From positions 21,726 to 85,725 of the IMG/VR virus record IMGVR_UViG_3300035156_000038: 64,000 bases of DNA; one strand, 5' to 3'. The notes beneath the pieces were generated by a model. It did not search any database, had not been told where the DNA came from, and saw only the letters and a program-made list of their open reading frames with translations. This document shows, one piece after another, positions 9,401-64,000 of the stretch. The position numbers and the translations under genes were made by a program. Each line of letters opens with the position of its first letter. Position 1 is the first letter of the stretch. Source of the DNA: a virus. Taxonomy: Duplodnaviria > Heunggongvirae > Uroviricota > Caudoviricetes.

Positions 9401-12400
9401 AGCCCTAGACAAGCAGTTGGAGTTTGACGAAGCCCGTGCACAGTCGGCTTATAACACAGCTATGGCTAGTGCCAATGGCGATGCCAAGGCAATGTCTGAC
9501 GCGTGGATTACGCTAGAGGCTTTCAAGTCCAAGTCAGATAAGCTGCGTAGTGCTTTGGCTAAGAACTTTAAGATTGACTTTAAAGTGGCTGGCCTGAAAG
9601 ACGTTTCTAACGCGTTCAACCAATTGTCGAAGTCCGCTACGGCATTTGGAGACACGTTCGCACACGTGGGCCAAGCTCTTAGTGGGCTAGGCGAGGGTCT
9701 TGCCAACCTTGCAGATATTGAAAGCAAGGAAGGTATTAGCCGTCAAGAACGCACAGCACAGCAGATTGGTGCGTACGGCCAAATGGCCGGGGCAGCAGCA
9801 GGGTTCTTCCAAGAAGGATCGAAGGGTTACAAAACCTTGATGGGCGTGTCGAAAATCTTCCACGCAGCCGAAATGGCGATGACCATGTGGCGTCTGGGTA
9901 AGCTGGCTATCGAAGCAGTTATGACACAGGCTAAAGGCGATCCTTACACCGCATGGGGCCGTATGGCAGCGATGGCCGCTGTAGTTGGTGCACTTGGATT
10001 CGCGGTAGGTGGCGGATTCAATAAAGCCGGTGAAGGTGGCGGCATGAAGGCAGCAGACGTACAGAAGAAGCAAGGCACTGGCGGTGTGTTTGGTGACGCG
10101 GAAGCGAAGTCAGATAGCATTCGCAAGTCAATGGAACTGCTGAAAAGCAATTCGGAATTCATGATTCCTTTGACGCAGGCTATGGCTAACTCGCTGGCAA
10201 ACATTGAAGCGAGCATGACTGGACTTACAAACCTGATTGCACGCACGGATGGTATCACGGGCGGAACCAACATGGGAATCACCACAGGCACTATCGCCAC
10301 ATCGAAAGGTGCAGGGGTTCTTGGGGTAGGTTCGGGAGCGGCGCTGGGTATGTACCTAGGTGGCCCACTCGGAGCAGCCCTAGGGGCTGTAGCAGGCTTC
10401 GTAGCCTCTATGTGGGGGAAGACTAAAGCTGAGATTGTTGATGCGGGTATCTCGATTAAGGGTACAGGTTCGGCTCTGCAATCCGGTAATGGTTACAACC
10501 AATACGCGAGTGTGGATACAACCAAGTCTAGCTTCTTCGGCCTTAAGAAGAAGACAAGCAACAGTGTTCAAACCCAAGGTTTGAGCGATGAACTGTCGTC
10601 GCAATTCGCTCTTGTGTTTACGCAGTTGGAAGACACAATGAAGATTGCCGCTGGTACGCTTGGTAAGACTTCCGGTGACGTTTCGTCAGCAATTGATAAC
10701 CTAGTTATCGACGCTTCTGTTTCGTTGAAAGACCTGAAAGGGGATGCCCTTACCGATGCACTTAACGGTGTGTTGTCTAAGGCAATGGATCAGATGGCAG
10801 AGGCTGCATTCCCAGCAATGGGAGCGTTCCGCCAAGTCGGTGAAGGTTACGCACAAACGGTTATTCGTGTTGCTACCGGAATCGAACAAGCCAACGTAGC
10901 TTTGGACGCATTTGGTATTACTGCAATTGCGTTCACCGACATTACTACAAAGTCTGGGGATGTGGCAGCACAAATCTTCAAGCAAAGCGTAATGCTGCGT
11001 GAGGCTGGAACTGGCGTAGGAAACTTGATTGATACCCTAACAGGTTCGGTTGACGATCTTGCTAAAGCTTACCAGACTCTATTCGACATTCGTAAGACGA
11101 TGACGGAAATTGGCCTAGGCGGTGGACTGAATCAAGACACTATCAAAGGTGCTGGCGGGGCTGGAAAGCTTGGTAGCGCACTTGAAACGTTCTATTCAGA
11201 ATTCTTCTCTGAAGGTGAGCGCATCGCTATCGAAACAACGAAGTTGACCGGGCAATTCAAAGCTCTAGGTGTTGCTCTGCCTGAGTCACGGGATCAGCTA
11301 CGTTCGTGGATTGAAGCAGCGGCAAACGCTGGCGACCAAACTACGGTCGGTAAGCTACTAGCGTTGGCAGGCGGGTTTGATGAGTTGCTAGACTCTATCG
11401 AATCTGGCGGGGATAACGTGCTCAAGAACGCAGAAGACGCTTTCGATGCTGCAATGGACATCGCTGATAAAGCGTACGCCCAGTTGGAAAAAGTTGTTGA
11501 GAAAGAGAAGGACAGACTTAATAAAGTTATCGACGCAGCTAAAGAAACTATTAGCGGCCTAGCTGGCATTATGAGTTCTCTGGACGAAGCTATCAAGTCA
11601 ACTACCACTGTGTCGCAAGTCAAGACGTTCGCAGACTCTATGAGCCTCGTACGCGGTGCGCTTTCACAGGTTAATGGTGGAGCCAAGATGCAAGACATCA
11701 AGGGCTTGGAAGACGCGTTTACCGCTCTGGGATCGGATGACAATTCGGCCTACGCTTCAGCTTTCGAATACGAACGTGCACAGGCTTACGCTAACACGCT
11801 GCTGAACGATCTGAAGGTTGCTGGCGAAGGCCAGATGACCGAAGCGGAGAAGGCTCTTAAACTGGCCGAAAGCCAGCTAGAAGCCCTTGACGCCCAGCTT
11901 GAGTACGCACAGGCACAGCTTGACGCCTTGCGTGGTATCGACAATAGCGTGCTAACGTTGGCAGTAGCAATGGCTAACTTCAAGAGCGCCATTCCCGGTG
12001 CAGCAGGCGCAGCAGCAAATCTGGATGCAGTGAAGAACGGTGGGGGTGCTTCTGCCCAAATCGAATCGCTGTACAAGAGTTTGCTAGGGCGTGATTCAGA
12101 CGCAGCAGGCAAGGCGTACTGGATGAATGCATTGGGCAATGGCTTCTCTCTGTCGTCAATCGCCAGTATGATGATGGATGGTGACGAATACAAGTCGAAG
12201 CTACCTTCATTCGCAGTGGGTATTAACGATGTGCCAGAGGATATGCTAGCGAACCTGCACAAAGGTGAACGTGTTATGCCAGCGGCGGATAACGCAGAAC
12301 TAATGCGCAGACTAGATAGCGACTCCAGTGGAGATAATGGCGACGTAGTAGCAGCCATTAACGACCTGAAGGAAATTATCCGTACGGGTGACATTGCCAA

Positions 12401-12488
12401 CGTCCAAAAGACAGCGGAACTGTTCAAGTTGATTCGTGGATGGGATACAAACGGTATGCCGCAAGAGCGTGCTGAAGACGATGAGTAA
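6417..12488 (+). CDS. tail tape measure protein
   Basis: 2023 aa; long coiled-coil-rich regions plus central hydrophobic segments; follows chaperones; RBS AAGAGGACAAGCATG. Confidence 0.85.
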   Translation: MTTDISTLQVKVTSTGVTDTTKELNSLTKAATNAENAVKKLGTQVLSSNASMAASAGASIALTNAIVTLNTTLVSMGGHLGGNTQQIRNNTRAMRDAHDAARGLAGSLGALWVTYGNLAPMAAGLAIGASLKGIVSVGKDVEHALEAMRVKGGETVETADKLRESIFSIGQGIYGPREVAGALDALILAGLNAEDAIKGVKAALNLATAGGGSIEKAAESLVTIGTAVGASSKQYDYLADGIAKAANTSLASVESIAETMKRGSVVNKLYGASFEDILIQASALSQLGIKNSAAGTAITNFYADAMGKTEKAKKALADLKFSFFDATGAAKPLVAAMTEFDQALKKFSEKDQGKLIQDIFGERGLRDVVALQRGLINQAADDTTKYNNKLEELQANIQNMAGTSALAAAQLAMTTENQFKSVGNTLEVTFAKIFKELEPQMNVVAMKLKQAFASPEFAIAVTNIAKVFSSLAVAVAENIGPLFAAVEGLLAFKLIAMAVATATSVTTWLTSFGVGMGAISVAAGGATTAVTAFGVALRFAIAAIPVVGLLIGVVSAALAVYNIHSAQAKDNTNDIATAYNTNYLQALTEEAERLEKTNGLMREGATAAQANAAATRELALAKAQSNNQDAIDAARTRMTTADQNYTNLGPNGNPFARQKAAEAREAARTEMNGLIDSAAQFDMQARETANRVIAASEAQRQLYKDEQDRAKKDLAAQAGTQTRPEVDKEYNKRMNFYEGERGELERLMATYKARTEAVLEGAAAEMRVMAEVEKARVRANGAAKYPSQKAYEEQMALAVSVDRAKFEQQNANAIAEQRNKITAIIERERAYQKELAEGDQARVGLLEKQTASIFKFNHASEGALVIEKQRAAMADEILRIEEARKKLDSATGAISQRAASLMDEAMAIDFYGKSAKQSAVEAARLLVIKLGLDASNAGAQINALNLAAANEDLARSYNEVTKQLAVMGEEEALRNAVDVAGVIGAETAKVEAKRQALDKQLEFDEARAQSAYNTAMASANGDAKAMSDAWITLEAFKSKSDKLRSALAKNFKIDFKVAGLKDVSNAFNQLSKSATAFGDTFAHVGQALSGLGEGLANLADIESKEGISRQERTAQQIGAYGQMAGAAAGFFQEGSKGYKTLMGVSKIFHAAEMAMTMWRLGKLAIEAVMTQAKGDPYTAWGRMAAMAAVVGALGFAVGGGFNKAGEGGGMKAADVQKKQGTGGVFGDAEAKSDSIRKSMELLKSNSEFMIPLTQAMANSLANIEASMTGLTNLIARTDGITGGTNMGITTGTIATSKGAGVLGVGSGAALGMYLGGPLGAALGAVAGFVASMWGKTKAEIVDAGISIKGTGSALQSGNGYNQYASVDTTKSSFFGLKKKTSNSVQTQGLSDELSSQFALVFTQLEDTMKIAAGTLGKTSGDVSSAIDNLVIDASVSLKDLKGDALTDALNGVLSKAMDQMAEAAFPAMGAFRQVGEGYAQTVIRVATGIEQANVALDAFGITAIAFTDITTKSGDVAAQIFKQSVMLREAGTGVGNLIDTLTGSVDDLAKAYQTLFDIRKTMTEIGLGGGLNQDTIKGAGGAGKLGSALETFYSEFFSEGERIAIETTKLTGQFKALGVALPESRDQLRSWIEAAANAGDQTTVGKLLALAGGFDELLDSIESGGDNVLKNAEDAFDAAMDIADKAYAQLEKVVEKEKDRLNKVIDAAKETISGLAGIMSSLDEAIKSTTTVSQVKTFADSMSLVRGALSQVNGGAKMQDIKGLEDAFTALGSDDNSAYASAFEYERAQAYANTLLNDLKVAGEGQMTEAEKALKLAESQLEALDAQLEYAQAQLDALRGIDNSVLTLAVAMANFKSAIPGAAGAAANLDAVKNGGGASAQIESLYKSLLGRDSDAAGKAYWMNALGNGFSLSSIASMMMDGDEYKSKLPSFAVGINDVPEDMLANLHKGERVMPAADNAELMRRLDSDSSGDNGDVVAAINDLKEIIRTGDIANVQKTAELFKLIRGWDTNGMPQERAEDDE

Positions 12489-12493
12489 TTAAC

Positions 12494-12527
12494 AGGGGCG
12501 TGCCGAAAGGTGCGCCCTTTTTCTTTA
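12494..12527 (+). terminator. rho-independent terminator
   Basis: GGGGCGTGC-CGAAAGG-TGCGCCC followed by TTTTTCTTT. Confidence 0.65.
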
Positions 12528-18340: not shown

Positions 18341-18470
18341 TTTCCGCATACCGTGAAGGATGTCTTCGATGATAAGCACGATGAAGATGATAAGCATTAG
18401 CAGTCAGACATCATAGCGATAAGCACTAGCAGCAGCATACCACACAGCATACCTACAATGAAGGTGAGCA

Positions 18471-46373: not shown

Positions 46374-47645
46374 TCAACCGCCTACCGTGTAGTGTTTCGG
46401 GTTCTTACCTTCGTGGACGGCTGCAATCTGCGGCACAAGTGCCTTCAGTGCATCACGCTCTTTCAGGTAGCCAGCCATTTTCAGGCGGTCGTCAATCAGC
46501 ATTCCAGCAGCACGCGCTTCCACAAGGATAGCCACGTTGGCAAGAACACCGCCAAGGTGCGGCACACCGTCAGCCGGGTCAAATTCTTCGCCTGCTTCCC
46601 ACGAAGCAAGGTGGCGTTTGATAGCCGCGATGTAGATGCTAGCTTCCACCGGAGTGTTAGCGAAGTTAGCCTTGCCGTACTTCAGCGAACCGTTGTACAG
46701 GGCCAGTGAACCGTAAGCCGAAGCAAGGTTGCTCCACATATTCAGCGGAATCGAAGCCAGCCCGTATTGCTTCTTCGGGTTGGTGTCGGGCGGCGAATCT
46801 TCGTCGTGGTGGACGAACCCACGGTCAGGGTATGCCTCCTTCGCTGGCGTAACAACCGGGCAAACACGGTAGGCAACGATGTCATTTTGTGCACCGTCAT
46901 GCTGCCAGAATTGGCTAGAAGCATCACGTGCGCTTGCCTCAAACTCGTTAGCACGCACATTGAAAGCTGGACGTTCGCCGTCACGATAGCGAACATCCAC
47001 ACGGGTGCCGTCTGGTACAGGGCATTCACCGCCGTTCCAGCTAATGAAGCCGTCCTTACCCACTTGCACAGTTTCAGTGCCGCCAGCAGCTTCCACCACA
47101 TCAGCCACCATAGCTTGCAGGGTGACAGGCTCTTGCACAGGGCGGTAGTAGGCGATGCAGCCAAGGCTCGCACCAACGCCCCACCACCAAGTATCGGCTT
47201 CATGTCTTGCGTTGGTCTGTCCCCGGTTAAACATCACTTCAACCTTACCTTCGATGGTAGGTTGCACGCCAGTATTCTTGATCCAGCCTTCAGCGAGCAT
47301 GACCGCTTCGGCACGCTTAGCAACAGCACGCTTGCGTTGATCCTTCTTACGTGCCTTGCGGATTGCCTTGACAGCATTGACGGCTTCACGCAAACCGAAG
47401 AACGTAAATTCGCCAGTCTTAGGCTCCCACCGCTGTTCTTGTGGGCAGTTGGTGATGCGGCAATCTTCGTCAACCATCAGGAAAGAGTTACCGTTGCTGT
47501 AGTCAAACTTGGTGCGGCAACCCGAAGCCCATTTGAACCCGAGCTTGAACATCAGTTCTTGTGCACGATGGGATTGTTCAAGGTTTTTAGTACGAATAAA
47601 TCCACCCTTGAACTTGTCGGTGATGTGGTTTGTTGCAAAACTCAT
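46374..47645 (-). CDS. hypothetical protein (C-terminal domain possibly dNTP-pyrophosphohydrolase-like)
   Basis: 423 aa; conserved-looking C-terminal block NPKKQYGL…; not recognised with confidence. Confidence 0.4.
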   Translation of the reverse strand: MSFATNHITDKFKGGFIRTKNLEQSHRAQELMFKLGFKWASGCRTKFDYSNGNSFLMVDEDCRITNCPQEQRWEPKTGEFTFFGLREAVNAVKAIRKARKKDQRKRAVAKRAEAVMLAEGWIKNTGVQPTIEGKVEVMFNRGQTNARHEADTWWWGVGASLGCIAYYRPVQEPVTLQAMVADVVEAAGGTETVQVGKDGFISWNGGECPVPDGTRVDVRYRDGERPAFNVRANEFEASARDASSQFWQHDGAQNDIVAYRVCPVVTPAKEAYPDRGFVHHDEDSPPDTNPKKQYGLASIPLNMWSNLASAYGSLALYNGSLKYGKANFANTPVEASIYIAAIKRHLASWEAGEEFDPADGVPHLGGVLANVAILVEARAAGMLIDDRLKMAGYLKERDALKALVPQIAAVHEGKNPKHYTVGG

Positions 47646-53730: not shown

Positions 53731-53961
53731 TTAAGCCTTTTCAGCCAGCAGCGTACGGATTTGTGCGACAGGCAGGCCGAAGGTTTCATGTGCACGCAGG
53801 ATGATCGTAGCACCCACCTTCAGCGAGCCAGCACGAATCTTGCTAACCACTGGCGGCTTCACATTCAGTGCGATAGCCAAAGCACGGTCGCTAGCTACGC
53901 CCTTGTCAGCACGCAGGTAGTTGAACAGGTTGCCCGAGGCGTCATTTTCGTAAGTTTTCAT
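53731..53961 (-). CDS. HTH DNA-binding protein (Cro/CI-type)
   Basis: 76 aa; SDRALAIALNVKPPVVSKIRAG helix-turn-helix; RBS AAAGGAGCTACAAATG. Confidence 0.5.
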   Translation of the reverse strand: MKTYENDASGNLFNYLRADKGVASDRALAIALNVKPPVVSKIRAGSLKVGATIILRAHETFGLPVAQIRTLLAEKA

Positions 53962-58100: not shown

Positions 58101-58150
58101 TAGATACTAGATTTGAAAAACTGGATTTTTCTGGAAAATGTACCGAAAAT
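58101..58150. repeat. copy 1 of ~45-bp repeat (TTGAAAAACTGGATTTTTCTGGAAAATGTACCGAAAATTTTGG)
   Basis: ~80% identical to the copy at 63664–63710; the two copies bracket the early region. Confidence 0.5.
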
Positions 58151-60150: not shown

Positions 60151-60274
60151 ATGCCCCGGCCCTACGTTCCCCGCGACTATGTAGCCGAACACGCCCAGCA
60201 GGCCGCTATGTGGGCTGCGTTCAAGGCGGCAAAGGCGGCAATCCTTAGCAGCGCAAGCAAATAAGAATAAACGC

Positions 60275-60303
60275 TTGCACTAACTAAAAAGTTTCGTTAG
60301 AAT
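60275..60303 (+). promoter_or_regulatory. early promoter cassette copy 1
   Basis: AATAAACGCTTGCACTAACTAAAAAG…TAGAAT (TTGCAC - 17 - TAGAAT). Confidence 0.55.
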
Positions 60304-60336
60304 AGCTTCACTCAACCAACAACTGAAGGTAACAAC

Positions 60337-60936
60337 ATGAACAACGCAATCGAATTCAAGGGCTTCAAGATCGAATTTATCAGCAACGGGCTTAACATCG
60401 ACTCGGGCCGCTACTTCGTTTCCCCGGCAAACGCCTACAACGGTATCAACCCGAACGGATACGCCACGATGGGCGGGGCTAAAGGGGCGATCACTAAATT
60501 CGTCAACCACGCAGCAACCCTGCCCCCAGCAGCTACCGAAGTCACGAACGCCGCAGGCGTCGAACTGAAGCAAGACGCAAGTGTGGTTGTCGTCAACGCA
60601 GGCCCGGACGCTGAAGCCGTCAAACCGTCGCCAATCGTGACGAAGTGCGCAAGCAAGGAAGACGCCGACCGTGCGACCGTGGAAGCCAAAGAAGCCGAAA
60701 GCAATCACCTTATGGCCCAGCTTCGTTACCACGGCTTTACCAAGCCTGTGCATAGCTTCAACCCGCGTTTGTGTGACTATCGCAGCCGCAACAAGCGCGA
60801 AGGCCATACGGCGGAACGCCTGAAGTGGGCAACAAAGCACATGAGTGCAGAAGCGAAGAATCGCAAGCAACGCAAGGCCGCAAAGCTGGCGTACAACGCC
60901 AAAGCTGGCCGCTTGTTGTCCAAGCTTGAATTTTAA
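60337..60936 (+). CDS. hypothetical early protein
   Basis: 199 aa; RBS GAAGGTAACAACATG. Confidence 0.5.
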   Translation: MNNAIEFKGFKIEFISNGLNIDSGRYFVSPANAYNGINPNGYATMGGAKGAITKFVNHAATLPPAATEVTNAAGVELKQDASVVVVNAGPDAEAVKPSPIVTKCASKEDADRATVEAKEAESNHLMAQLRYHGFTKPVHSFNPRLCDYRSRNKREGHTAERLKWATKHMSAEAKNRKQRKAAKLAYNAKAGRLLSKLEF

Positions 60937-60998
60937 ACAAAGGCGGCAACATAGCCGCCAACAATCCAACCAACCTAGAGAACTGAAAAGAGAATATC

Positions 60999-61166
60999 AT
61001 GCACGGCAACGAAGGCTTCCAGCCCCTTAACGCACGCACCAAGCAACGCAACGCACGCCCACCGGGCGGCACGCAGGCCGAACCCCTGAAGCAAGCCAAA
61101 CGCGGCAAGGGCTGGCAACGCGAGAACAACAAGCGCGACCAGTGGCAAGAAACGCCGGAATTCTGA
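60999..61166 (+). CDS. small basic protein (~55 aa)
   Basis: Sub-threshold ORF MHGNEGFQPLNARTKQRNARPPGG…; followed by terminator. Approximate. Confidence 0.3.
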   Translation: MHGNEGFQPLNARTKQRNARPPGGTQAEPLKQAKRGKGWQRENNKRDQWQETPEF

Positions 61167-61178
61167 CGCGTACGTAAG

Positions 61179-61207
61179 CCGCACCTAGCCCGTGCGGTTT
61201 TCTTTCG
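61179..61207 (+). terminator. rho-independent terminator
   Basis: CCGCAC-CTAGCC-CGTGCGG followed by TTTTCTTTC. Confidence 0.5.
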
Positions 61208-61227
61208 TCCTATTCAATAATAACCGC

Positions 61228-61256
61228 TTGCACAAACTAAAAAGCTTCTATACAAT
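61228..61256 (+). promoter_or_regulatory. early promoter cassette copy 2
   Basis: AATAATAACCGCTTGCACAAACTAAAAAG…TACAAT. Confidence 0.55.
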
Positions 61257-61281
61257 GCAAGGCATACCAACCAACCTAAGA

Positions 61282-61554
61282 GGTTCTAACGTGGCAAAAC
61301 TTACGGCAGCACAGCAACGCGCACTTGAAACCATCGCGTATCACTTGAACCGTGCGCAAGCTTTCTTAAGCAAGCCCGATGTTATAGTTGCAATGAAGAA
61401 AAGTCATCCAGTACCAACGACAACGCTAGATTTTATTCTTCCAGATGGTACGGTAGCATTTGCGATTGATAAGGAAATTGGAAGCGACCTAGCCGGGTTG
61501 GAAATGGGTATGCAATACCTTAAGAATTTTGTAGAGTTCAACAGCAAACAATAG
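61282..61554 (+). CDS. hypothetical early protein
   Basis: GTG start after RBS AAGAGG (the upstream ATG would overlap the −10); ~90 aa. Confidence 0.4.
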   Translation, partial: GSNVAKLTAAQQRALETIAYHLNRAQAFLSKPDVIVAMKKSHPVPTTTLDFILPDGTVAFAIDKEIGSDLAGLEMGMQYLKNFVEFNSKQ

Positions 61555-61595
61555 CCAACCGGGGCCACGGCCCCACTAACAAAGAGGGTAATATC

Positions 61596-62018
61596 ATGCA
61601 AGCTAATACAACCGAAGTTAAGAAGGCCGAACGCGTAGAAGCCCCGGCATTGGATCACGATAGAATGATGCTGGAAAAATACAAGATAGCAGTTATCCCG
61701 CGTGGCAAGATCGAACGCCGCGTGGTCGCTAACCTGCTGGCCCATTTGTGGGCTAACGGCTTCCAGCCTGTAGAACTGAATGACGGGGAAGAAGAAACGA
61801 AGGTAGAAGGCCCACAAAACACGATGGAACTTATGTTCAATCTGGACGAATGCCGGGTGTACTTCAGTCACGCGAGCGCCCCGGAACGTCTGCAATGGGT
61901 CTTCTTCGTGTTTGGCAATGACGGCTGGGACTGCATCTGTGACTACTCCGCCCCGGAAGACAACTACAACAACTGGAACGCGGTTATGGACGCCTTCAAC
62001 CCGGAAGACTACGCGTAA
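61596..62018 (+). CDS. hypothetical acidic early protein
   Basis: 140 aa; RBS AAAGAGGGTAATATCATG. Confidence 0.5.
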   Translation: MQANTTEVKKAERVEAPALDHDRMMLEKYKIAVIPRGKIERRVVANLLAHLWANGFQPVELNDGEEETKVEGPQNTMELMFNLDECRVYFSHASAPERLQWVFFVFGNDGWDCICDYSAPEDNYNNWNAVMDAFNPEDYA

Positions 62019-62026
62019 TAATAACA

Positions 62027-62055
62027 GTTGACACAAACTAAAAGCCCCTGCATAA
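62027..62055 (+). promoter_or_regulatory. early promoter cassette copy 3
   Basis: AATAATAACAGTTGACACAAACTAAAAG…CATAAT; the −10 lies in the loop of a GCCCC/GGGGC hairpin. Confidence 0.55.
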
Positions 62056-62089
62056 TGGGGCTTCCTTAACCAATTACACAGGTAGCAAC

Positions 62090-62725
62090 ATGAAGAACTT
62101 CACCGCACAAGTACGAATGATGGACGGCACTTTGGAAGCTGTAAAGCTGGACGCCGAAAGCCTTTTTTCAGTGGAAACGGCAGTAATGGAACAACTGTTC
62201 AAGGAAGGTAAGCATCCAAACCGTATTGAACACATGGGCCTCACTCCACCAATGAAAGATGCTTGTTTCGTGGTTAATCGTGCTGCTAACGACTTCGTTA
62301 TTCTGGACGATGCCCTGTGGAACAACGTGGAAGGCGTCTACCGGGGCCGGTTCGGCGCTAAGACGCTGGAACAGTACAAGCTTGACCCGGCCTACAACAT
62401 CGCGGAATTGATGGAATGGGACGATGCCCAAAAGCTCTACGATAAAGCCCAATCGGCTAAGTATTGCGGCCCCGTCAAAGAGATTGACGAAGACCGCTAT
62501 AATTACCTGCTGGAAGTTCTGCCCCCGGAAGATTGGGTATATGGCGGGGCCGAATCCAGCTTCAAGCTGTGCGAACGGCTCAGCGGCAACATTACCACGA
62601 TTGCAGCCCGGATCGGGGGCAAGCATTACGAATTCAACGACGATTACAAGATGCCACACGCGGCCATTGTTGCCAAGGTGGGGAAGGCTATCGAAGACGG
62701 TACGCTTATCAAGCTGGAAGCGTGA
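62090..62725 (+). CDS. hypothetical early protein
   Basis: 211 aa; RBS CAGGTAGCAACATG. Confidence 0.5.
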   Translation: MKNFTAQVRMMDGTLEAVKLDAESLFSVETAVMEQLFKEGKHPNRIEHMGLTPPMKDACFVVNRAANDFVILDDALWNNVEGVYRGRFGAKTLEQYKLDPAYNIAELMEWDDAQKLYDKAQSAKYCGPVKEIDEDRYNYLLEVLPPEDWVYGGAESSFKLCERLSGNITTIAARIGGKHYEFNDDYKMPHAAIVAKVGKAIEDGTLIKLEA

Positions 62726-62727
62726 AC

Positions 62728-62755
62728 AAGCCCCGAAAGGGGCTTTTCTTTTTGT
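62728..62755 (+). terminator. rho-independent terminator
   Basis: AAGCCCC-GAAA-GGGGCTT followed by TTCTTTTTG. Confidence 0.65.
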
Positions 62756-62764
62756 AATAACCGC

Positions 62765-62794
62765 TTGCACAAGAATGCTTTTCTGTTGTATTAT
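62765..62794 (+). promoter_or_regulatory. early promoter cassette copy 4
   Basis: GTAATAACCGCTTGCACAAGAATG…TATTAT (18-nt spacer). Confidence 0.5.
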
Positions 62795-62827
62795 GTTTGT
62801 ATTCCAACAAAAACGTATTCCTAGAAC

Positions 62828-63046
62828 ATGGCAAAGCGCAACGTTTTAATGTCAGTCAACGGCGTGGTAACGCTGGAAGTCCCACGGTATAATAAACCCG
62901 TGGTTGTTTCGCTACCATGCCGTATCGTAGGTAATCGCCTGTACACGATGACGCGCACGTTTTGCCTTGTCACCCTCCAAAAGATCGCCGGGGCTGCTGG
63001 GGATGCTGATTGCAAACTAATTTCTTATACCACAGTGAACGGATAA
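62828..63046 (+). CDS. hypothetical small early protein
   Basis: 72 aa. Confidence 0.4.
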   Translation: MAKRNVLMSVNGVVTLEVPRYNKPVVVSLPCRIVGNRLYTMTRTFCLVTLQKIAGAAGDADCKLISYTTVNG

Positions 63047-63050
63047 TTCT

Positions 63051-63425
63051 ATGCCACGTCAACCAGTTAGCAACCTTCCCACGCTGGAAGAACGCATTTT
63101 TCACTCAGACGGCAAAGGCTTACGCGGGATCACCCTGTTAGCTGCTAGCGGCAGGCGTGGCGATGCCTTAAGCGTGGCCGTGCATGACTCCGAAGGCAAG
63201 CGTAAGAACATCACTACGCTATCCCTGAAGGGGCAGGACTTTAACAGCCAATGGGTAAAGGCTGTTGATGCTATCGCAGCCTACCACGGCGACAAGGTAG
63301 ACAACGGCCTACGCCGTACCATGTACGAAGCGTCCGGGGCCTTCCTGAAGCGTTACAGGCTCACGCTTACGCCTGTTGTAGTCGCCTATCACGAAGCCTC
63401 GACAGAGGCGGCAGAGCCGTGTTAA
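63051..63425 (+). CDS. hypothetical early protein
   Basis: 124 aa. Confidence 0.45.
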   Translation: MPRQPVSNLPTLEERIFHSDGKGLRGITLLAASGRRGDALSVAVHDSEGKRKNITTLSLKGQDFNSQWVKAVDAIAAYHGDKVDNGLRRTMYEASGAFLKRYRLTLTPVVVAYHEASTEAAEPC

Positions 63426-63664
63426 AGCCCATCCAGACGGAGATTAGAACGGCGGTTGTTGACGGCGTTCTGTGCCGCGTGTTGACTACGGCAGGCGGGG
63501 CTATGGCTGAGCCTATCGTCAAGGTTCAAAAGCGTATGAGTAAGATCAACGCTAAGCGCCCCGTCTGGGTATCCGTGCGGGAATTTGATAAATTTTTGCG
63601 TGCGCAAATTCTGGAAGCGGTAGAAGGCAAAGAGCCTGACGTAATACTACCCGGCCACGGCTGA
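63419..63664 (+). CDS. hypothetical early protein
   Basis: 81 aa; overlaps previous gene (coupled). Confidence 0.4.
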   Translation: MLKPIQTEIRTAVVDGVLCRVLTTAGGAMAEPIVKVQKRMSKINAKRPVWVSVREFDKFLRAQILEAVEGKEPDVILPGHG

Positions 63665-63710
63665 TTTTGAAAACTAGATTTTGCTGGGGAATGTACCGAA
63701 AAATTACGTT
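63664..63710. repeat. copy 2 of ~45-bp repeat (TTGAAAACTAGATTTTGCTGGGGAATGTACCGAAAAATTACG)
   Basis: See copy 1. Confidence 0.5.
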
Positions 63711-63771
63711 CCTTATTACAGGAAAATTCGGGTTCTTCCCCTTCCCTGTTTCGACTCCAAATGAGAATGAT

Positions 63772-63830
63772 TCGCATTTACAAAGCCAAATGAGAACCGT
63801 TCTCAACACTGAATGAGAATCATTCTCAGG
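63772..63830. promoter_or_regulatory. three tandem palindromic operator-like sites (TGAGAAnnnTTCTCA)
   Basis: TGAGAATGATTCGCA, TGAGAACCGTTCTCA and TGAGAATCATTCTCA spaced ~20 bp apart; the last two are perfect 15-bp palindromes. Confidence 0.5.
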
Positions 63831-64000
63831 TAGACCCCGGCCAGCCGGGGCAGGGGCAGCACGGCCCCAGAGAGGCCCCCGGCAGCTAGACGGCCAGCAG
63901 CTAGCGCCAGCCCTACGCCGTAGGGACGGCACAGAGCAGCGGCCCCGGCACAGGGGCCTAGTTGATTGTAAGTAACTTATGTTGCCGTTAAGTAAACCCT

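Follow-up and report, generated by a model that had tools for sequence, protein, structure and literature searches.

An array of probable FUR-family boxes in a non-coding early region of an uncultured siphovirus-like phage recurs in T5-like and phAPEC8-like phages

Close to the end of the 64,000-nucleotide stretch of phage DNA analysed here, which will be referred to as the window, lies an array of three palindromic sites that most probably serve a metal-sensing repressor of the host's FUR family, in the first place Fur itself, and not a phage protein whose operators they would be. We put the probability of this reading at about 0.7. Binding of Fur to the array is what we infer from three sets of observations, namely the identity of the sites to FUR boxes, the contexts in which the motif occurs and its distribution across phages. 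The window corresponds to positions 21727-85726 of a metagenomic contig of 91,295 bp (ENA ERZ27253086 k141_393738), and contig-wide scans covered 79.5 kb of these 91.3 kb, that is, everything beyond the first 11.7 kb. Positions downstream of the window are given as window equivalents.

The phage is uncultured and siphovirus-like, with a lambda-type capsid module and a tape measure protein of 2023 aa encoded by the largest ORF, and belongs to a family of contigs of approximately 85-94 kb. It encodes PolA, DnaB, ThyX, a DNA ligase and an RNA ligase, and possibly a 2OG-Fe(II) oxygenase (weak Pfam match). The closest cultured capsid proteins, 46-52% identical, are those of Limnohabitans, Curvibacter and Pseudomonas phages, which points to a beta- or gamma-proteobacterium as the probable host. 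Two observations on gene content were made in passing. A 423-aa protein encoded on the minus strand (46374-47645) carries a dATP/dGTP diphosphohydrolase N-terminal domain (PF18909), and its gene adjoins the helicase gene across the phage family, which may hint at a non-canonical nucleotide metabolism. Upstream of both the window and the packaging module, genes for a TROVE (Ro60-like) protein and a PDDEXK_5 nuclease were found (L006 1-786; contig 11736-12521).

The array was first pointed out in an earlier note made from the sequence, which described three sites followed by a GC hairpin, and all four elements are present (none of them assigned to a strand). Site 1 (AAATGAGAATGATTCGCATTT, 63759-63779) contains the core TGAGAATGATTCGCA at 63762-63776, which departs from a palindrome at one position. 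The core of site 2 (AATGAGAACCGTTCTCAAC, 63789-63807), TGAGAACCGTTCTCA at 63791-63805, forms a perfect palindrome together with its outer arms and has the centre AAC-C-GTT. Site 3 (AATGAGAATCATTCTCAGG, 63812-63830) is a perfect 7-1-7 palindrome with the core TGAGAATCATTCTCA at 63814-63828, so that two of the three 15-bp sites are indeed perfect, as had been proposed. The start given in the earlier note, 63772, has to be moved, since it cuts into site 1, the core of which begins at 63762, 10 bp earlier, and the spacing is 29 bp and then 23 bp from centre to centre instead of about 20 bp. Located 3' of site 3 is the GC palindrome ACCCCGGCCAGCCGGGG (63834-63850), with which a GC-rich tract of about four short hairpins begins (63834-63958; 78% GC compared to 52% GC for the genome).

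The array is real and goes beyond chance. Allowing at most one mismatch to the site motif yielded three matches compared to 0.17 expected, and three or more were obtained in none of 100 shuffles; the extended unit AATGAGAAnnnTTCkCA occurs exactly three times compared to 0.00 expected. All matches of the array are confined to 67 bp. When two mismatches were allowed over the whole window, four matches compared to 2.05 expected were found, which is not significant. The statement that the half-site pair is absent elsewhere held for the window and can be extended to the scanned 79.5 kb of the source contig.

The array is situated in a gap of 482 bp without a called gene (63665 to window-equivalent 64146), between small co-directional early genes. 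The possibility that the region might prove to be coding in the full genome was checked on the full contig; no gene was called from 63664 to window-equivalent 64147, and the array is non-coding. Two ORFs that overlap it (63552-63932 on the minus strand and 63667-63816 on the plus strand) look spurious. The last gene of the upstream early transcription unit (63419-63664, plus strand) encodes 81 aa without a Pfam match, and no match to a DNA-binding family was obtained with Pfam for the genes flanking the array. Between the end of this gene at 63664 and the next promoter, no intrinsic terminator is predicted on the plus strand; four other units of the early block end in the conserved terminator agccccgaaaggggcttttctttt. 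From 5' to 3', the gap consists of an AT-rich part (40% GC) with a repeated element, the array (38% GC), the 125-bp tract of 78% GC, a further AT-rich part and a promoter. The repeated element (TTGAAAACTAGATTTTGCTGGGGAATGTACCGAAAA, 63670-63702, plus strand) has a direct copy, 88% identical, at 58117-58149 within a divergent control region of 892 bp. This AT-rich element of about 35-45 bp (TTTGAAAAACTGGATTTTTCTGGAAAATGTACCGAAAA) opens a long non-coding region in both places.

The sole sigma70-like promoter of the gap was found at window-equivalent 64084-64111, followed by a GTG start at 64147, confirming the expectation that genes lie beyond the window end. It belongs to a set of seven near-identical sigma70-type promoters in the early block (aataaCCGCTTGCACaaactaaaaag-N-TAnAAT), which span 60265-62830 of the window and window-equivalents 64084, 67882 and 69094. 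A leader with ribosome-binding site is repeated exactly over 31 bp at 61263-61293 and 64119-64149. As small genes driven by promoters extend at least 5.5 kb further downstream, the array, contrary to what had been assumed, does not mark the end of the early region. Between two of the small early genes, a match to the type II hammerhead ribozyme (RF02276) was noticed at window-equivalent 64459-64520 (L003 11409-11470, plus strand); with 34.3 bits (E = 7.7e-5) it falls short of the gathering score, 37. The nearest -35 element is located approximately 255 bp downstream of site 3, and neither by scan nor by eye was a promoter overlapping the array detected.

The motif was identified by a literal string search of the literature. 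The 15-mer of site 3 is identical to the core of the published Fur box of Xanthomonas campestris, the consensus of which is AATGAgAATcATTctCATT. Operators of the Enterococcus faecalis Fur regulon read TGAGAATGATTCTCA and TGAGAACGATTCTCA, and GATAATGAGAATCATTATT is listed among the Gram-negative iron boxes of the enterobacterial type. Sites 1, 2 and 3 agree with the Xanthomonas Fur 19-mer at 17, 14 and 16 of the 18 specified positions, respectively, and with the canonical extended 7-1-7 sequence (TGAnAATnATTnTCA) at 15, 12 and 14 of 18. The array thus shows the 7-1-7 inverted repeat or 19-bp consensus by which a FUR operator is recognised.

Scoring with a Fur matrix gave a graded result. The matrix was built from just 10-11 independent Gram-negative Fur boxes, which themselves score between 15.6 and 30.5 bits. 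Site 1 reaches 17.6 bits and lies inside this training range, site 3 with 14.3 bits falls just under it, and site 2 with 9.8 bits is well under it, which speaks against the Fur reading. Among the approximately 128,000 positions of the window, site 1 ranks second, site 3 third and site 2 ninth. The top match (18383-18401, GAAGATGATAAGCATTAGC) is located in a short repetitive stretch with the look of minus-strand coding sequence, and is probably due to chance.

When 185,579 genomes of bacteria and archaea were scanned, more than 120 places with two perfect sites at a distance of 5-35 bp were found. The neighbouring genes include fur (L249, L276), feoA (L257) and a bfd-type ferredoxin gene (L285), as well as genes for ZnuA/SitA-type binding proteins (L251, L264, L283, L293), ZinT, and a COG0523 GTPase together with an L33 paralogue (L274). 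Some neighbours, for example LolA and porins, are not metal genes. Proximity to metal-homeostasis genes in bacterial genomes, a further mark of FUR operators, is thus a property of the motif. The AAC-C-GTT centre seen in site 2 also accompanies AAT-N-ATT boxes near fur and other metal genes in bacteria. Near the motif in Rhodobacterales, Actinomycetes and Clostridia, the genes look like targets of Zur or Mur, which counts against the Fur reading. Because the FUR paralogue that reads the box varies with lineage, FUR-family box is the safe label, Fur proper being the likely reader in beta- and gamma-proteobacteria.

Variation among viral copies of the motif is in agreement with this assignment. 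When the centre triplet was left free in the search, T-N-A was obtained in 64% of 218 sites from 65 distinct viral arrays, which corresponds to the AAT-N-ATT core of Fur boxes. At position 4, the base found most often in place of the usual one is T, resulting in the canonical half-site TGATAAT, and among variant sites 159 changes are one-sided compared to only 9 that are compensating. Both features argue that the half-sites are read by a protein and are not paired with each other. The contrary idea, that the palindromes act as hairpins in nucleic acid (terminators, RNA stability elements, cruciforms or N4-type hairpin promoters with 3-nt loops), is close to negligible: a 6-bp stem closed by a 3-nt loop is possible at each site and the stretch 63750-63970 folds as DNA at -49.6 kcal/mol (z = -4.9 compared to shuffled sequences), but set against this are the scarcity of compensatory changes, the many T5 units that keep just one half-site, the lack of a T-run on either strand at the GC hairpin 63834-63850, for which no intrinsic terminator is predicted on the plus strand, the absence of an Rfam family match over the array and the GC-rich tract, and the fact that no gene for a giant virion RNA polymerase was seen, as N4-type hairpin promoters would require.

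The array has counterparts in phages to which the window phage is essentially unrelated. The sole DNA matches among 50,697 phage records (BLAST) were stretches of 37-46 bp, 89-95% identical, in T5-like Salmonella phages, where they fall in the non-coding region of the terminal repeat. They span site 1, its spacer and part or all of site 2, and in these phages the unit is repeated many times beside DnaA boxes. The same unit, including the spacer, makes up Repeat Region 3 in the left terminal repeat of T5 (Heusterspreute 1987; Wang 2005; Davison, bioRxiv 10.1101/866236), the stated identity and length applying to Epseptimavirus. On the plus strand of T5 (NC_005859), the pre-early genes T5.011-017 are followed by a terminator, paired DnaA boxes (~9430-9520) and the array (~9540-9725); 3' of the array come the palindrome CAGGGCAATTGCCCTG, the annotated major nick (9748/9749) with its GCGC, and nine DRD repeats, and the terminal repeat ends at 10219. 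The annotated injection stop signal (iss) encloses this whole layout. The T5 array forms the densest Fur-matrix cluster of the T5 genome, and its region matches 559 phage records. Two further observations concern T5-type sequences. The two best canonical Fur-matrix matches near the T5 left terminus (GGAACTGATAATCATTATCATCCTC; L005 228-252) fall within the dmp coding sequence. The record of Klebsiella phage vB_Kpn_AM_K6 (PP355768, 261 kb, Straboviridae) contains a complete T5-type iss region with DnaA boxes, array and DRD repeats at 100.4-100.9 kb, and is probably a chimera assembled from two phages.

The window array shares with T5 the repeat unit of DRC/pal type (AAATGAGAATCATT...) and the order, on the same strand, of genes reading towards the array, the array itself and a GC palindrome. 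T5 differs in having more units, adjoining paired DnaA boxes, the DRD repeats, the nick site and a location in a 10-kb terminal repeat. Neither DRD repeats, in 79.5 kb of the contig, nor adjoining DnaA boxes were detected around the window array, the nearest cluster of DnaA boxes being 3 kb downstream. In T5, the setting is the inner part of a long terminal repeat, and the phage encodes A1 and A2. Searching the window phage with T5 proteins by tblastn revealed neither A1 nor A2; the sole matches were to an HNH endonuclease and a further weak one, and kinship with T5 was rejected at the protein level. Since the unit is common to phages without shared proteins, a host factor is indicated, and a conserved host protein would be the economical explanation for its presence in the window phage and in T5.

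In the T5 literature, the units have been named DRC repeats and palE-palJ and were described as extremely conserved and of unknown function (Davison, bioRxiv 10.1101/866236). The T5 literature searched assigned no function to the DRC/pal repeats and made no mention of Fur, a word that is also absent from the paper by Davison (bioRxiv 10.1101/866236). There, the shear point of first-step transfer was estimated at 9618 in AY587007 coordinates. Converted by means of the offset in terminal-repeat length, this estimate corresponds to approximately 9700 in NC_005859, in or beside the array.

These features of T5 favour the main rival to the Fur reading, according to which the array is a cis signal for genome handling, such as an injection pause, a terminal-repeat boundary or packaging site, or origin iterons, with Fur or another factor as an architectural cofactor only. 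It is compatible with Fur as cofactor, but on balance we consider it rather unlikely. The T5 array is located inside the injection stop signal, about 500 bp away from the terminal repeat's inner end, with the estimated shear point in or beside it, the major nick approximately 25 bp past the GC palindrome and DnaA boxes adjoining. In the window phage, the DnaA boxes downstream of the array lie in a non-coding region of 706 bp (L003 13621-14326; window-equivalent 66671-67376), which holds five of the eight consensus DnaA boxes of the 79.5 kb (TTATCCACA, TTATGCACA, TGTGGATAA twice and TGTGCAAAA) together with TGGGGATAA and short repeats. This region is a candidate origin of replication and recalls the DnaA boxes of the T5 iss region. 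The combination of dyad repeats with an AT-rich tract and a GC palindrome resembles lambda-type origins, and arrays in viral contigs repeatedly have terminase genes next to them. Against genome handling, the window array is approximately 24 kb away from the terminase gene and has no adjacent DnaA boxes, A1/A2 homologues and T5 DRD repeats are missing from the phage, the association with terminase genes is confounded by lineage sampling, and the spacing of sites is loose across arrays.

A third, unrelated lineage with the array is represented by the phAPEC8-like myoviruses (Stephanstirmvirinae), a region for which the literature search yielded no description. In Escherichia phage vB_EcoM-Ro121lw (137.1 kb), four AAATGAnAATnATTCnCATTT boxes at a spacing of about 23-30 bp are followed by a GC-rich segment (L345 2470-2640). 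They occupy an unannotated gap of 575 bp, surrounded by small genes that run in the same direction. A query consisting of the array, the AT-rich DNA upstream and the GC-rich segment matched 273 phage records, 79 of them over at least 80% of its length. The likeness to the window phage, a member of a different virus family, consists in the closely spaced boxes, their place in a gap between small co-directional genes and the GC-rich segment after them; a difference is a possible promoter, TTTACA-17-GAAAAT, seen by eye next to the first box. GC-rich sequence is found 3' of the arrays in all three lineages, as a palindrome in T5 and as a segment in Ro121lw.

Among uncultured viruses, 89 loci of IMG/VR contain two perfect sites 5-35 bp apart compared to an estimated ~0.006 expected. 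This two-perfect-palindrome scan replaced an earlier one with three AATGAGAA words, which was polluted by simple tandem repeats. The loci range in GC content from 0.26 to 0.67, carry up to 8 boxes and are mostly located outside long open frames. Arrays seem to be enriched at contig ends and beside terminase genes, although lineage sampling and assembly effects confound this picture. Looking for cultured relatives of array-bearing contigs by way of their terminases gave no information.

Within the family of the window phage, the array appears to come and go. Close relatives were sought in IMG/VR by way of the neighbouring genes, and none were found; distant ligase relatives from IMG/VR showed no arrays. 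From a large protein collection, eight relatives were obtained on the basis of the ligase. The array is present in one and absent in three of them, and the remaining four contigs end before the syntenic spot. The positive relative (L222, ligase 60% identical) has an array of 3-4 boxes in a divergent early control region. As three out of four informative relatives do not carry the array, it is dispensable within the family. Its presence in unrelated phages, together with its occurrence in just one of four informative relatives, identifies the element as sporadic and suggests that it probably spread horizontally. The contexts also differ between phages, with convergent genes in T5, divergent promoters in L222 and a possible overlapping promoter in Ro121lw, and no single transcriptional logic fits all of them. 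Both the three negative relatives and the varying contexts count against the Fur reading.

The earlier note had explained the array as operators for a dimeric HTH repressor of the phage, either the product of the ORF at 53731-53961 or another early protein, controlling downstream genes. Part of this description stands, as the dyad sites are of the type bound by dimeric repressors; the geometry of an operator, however, finds no support, as no promoter overlaps the sites. With centre spacings of 23-29 bp, the three dyad sites do resemble lambdoid OR and OL, where CI and Cro act and where spacings in the 20s of bp suit cooperative dimers. Unlike OR and OL, the array has neither an adjacent repressor gene nor interleaved promoters, and its motif is that of a host regulator common to unrelated lytic-type phages. 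The ORF encodes 76 aa with an HTH-like stretch and a weak Pfam match (E = 0.066), but the best Pfam score of 13.9 bits remains below the cut-off of 26, so that there is no significant family match, and the ORF lies 10 kb away on the other strand. Moreover, T5-like and phAPEC8-like phages carry the identical unit but have essentially no proteins, and no candidate repressor, in common with the window phage, and the motif of the unit is a FUR box found near metal-homeostasis genes in bacteria. Control by a phage HTH protein is hence quite unlikely. The scanned 79.5 kb of the contig revealed no gene for a Fur homologue. Of other E. coli regulators with similar half-sites, ArgR, PurR, Cra, KdgR, Zur and NrdR do not match the array in spacing or half-site.

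Another possibility is that the boxes act as a decoy, with replicating phage DNA titrating Fur and thereby derepressing host iron uptake for the benefit of iron-dependent phage enzymes. Multicopy Fur boxes do titrate Fur, which is the basis of the FURTA assay, some viral arrays reach 8 boxes, and the phage may encode the 2OG-Fe(II) oxygenase mentioned above. Nevertheless, the window phage has three boxes only, and a few hundred genome copies would face the thousands of Fur molecules present per cell. T5 degrades host DNA within minutes, which would render host derepression useless to it, and titration would not account for the way in which boxes are conserved together with a GC-rich palindrome or segment. 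We therefore regard a decoy function as highly unlikely.

If the sites belong to host Fur, as we favour, metal-loaded Fur dimers would fill the three 7-1-7 boxes, and a protein-DNA complex would form in the 482-bp untranslated spacer that separates two early transcription units. As a whole, the element represents a portable non-coding module composed of FUR boxes and a GC-rich palindrome or segment. In contrast to most Fur operators, the array does not overlap or abut a -35 or -10 element, which is a point against the Fur reading. With the nearest promoter approximately 255 bp away, classical repression is unlikely, and because promoter overlap is lacking and three sites are too few for titration of Fur, a local and iron-dependent output, speculative as it is, seems most likely. 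Speculatively, the complex might serve as a roadblock or insulator, the upstream unit being without a terminator, or it might modulate the next early promoter, about 255-320 bp downstream, from an upstream position. The latter would be comparable to ftnA of E. coli, where Fe-Fur acts by anti-silencing. A tentative and rather improbable extension is that host Fur serves as a structural or checkpoint cofactor which ties an early genome-level step to iron status in unrelated phages, from T5-like and phAPEC8-like ones to the family of the window phage and dozens of uncultured lineages. For T5, the step in question would be the pause that separates first-step from second-step DNA transfer, and the palindromes of the T5 iss region, unexplained since 1987, would then be Fur sites.

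The motif itself is not new, as Fur boxes are textbook elements. Like bacterial Fur boxes and box clusters (7-1-7 TGATAATnATTATCA; the Xanthomonas consensus; iucA; the upstream ftnA array), the array consists of several adjacent dyads of 15-19 bp, and the T/G variation at position 4 follows published logos. It differs in being carried on phage DNA, in its distance from any promoter and in the GC-rich hairpin tract on its 3' side. Sites for other host factors are known from phages, such as Pho boxes and NtcA sites in cyanophages, LexA boxes in temperate phages and DnaA boxes in T5. They have in common with the array that a host regulator is borrowed to read the state of the host; they are usually found at specific gene promoters, whereas the window array is promoter-less and its presumed regulator is metal-sensing.

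In the searchable literature, we found no report of promoter-less Fur-box arrays common to phage families, including the T5 injection-stop region. The placement of Fur-type arrays in non-coding early or terminal regions of lytic-type phages thus appears to be unreported. Should Fur not bind, the array would still be a conserved cross-family phage module in need of an explanation. If Fur does bind, the finding would bear on the long-standing question of two-step DNA transfer in T5 and on whether phages read the metal status of their host by means of a borrowed regulator.
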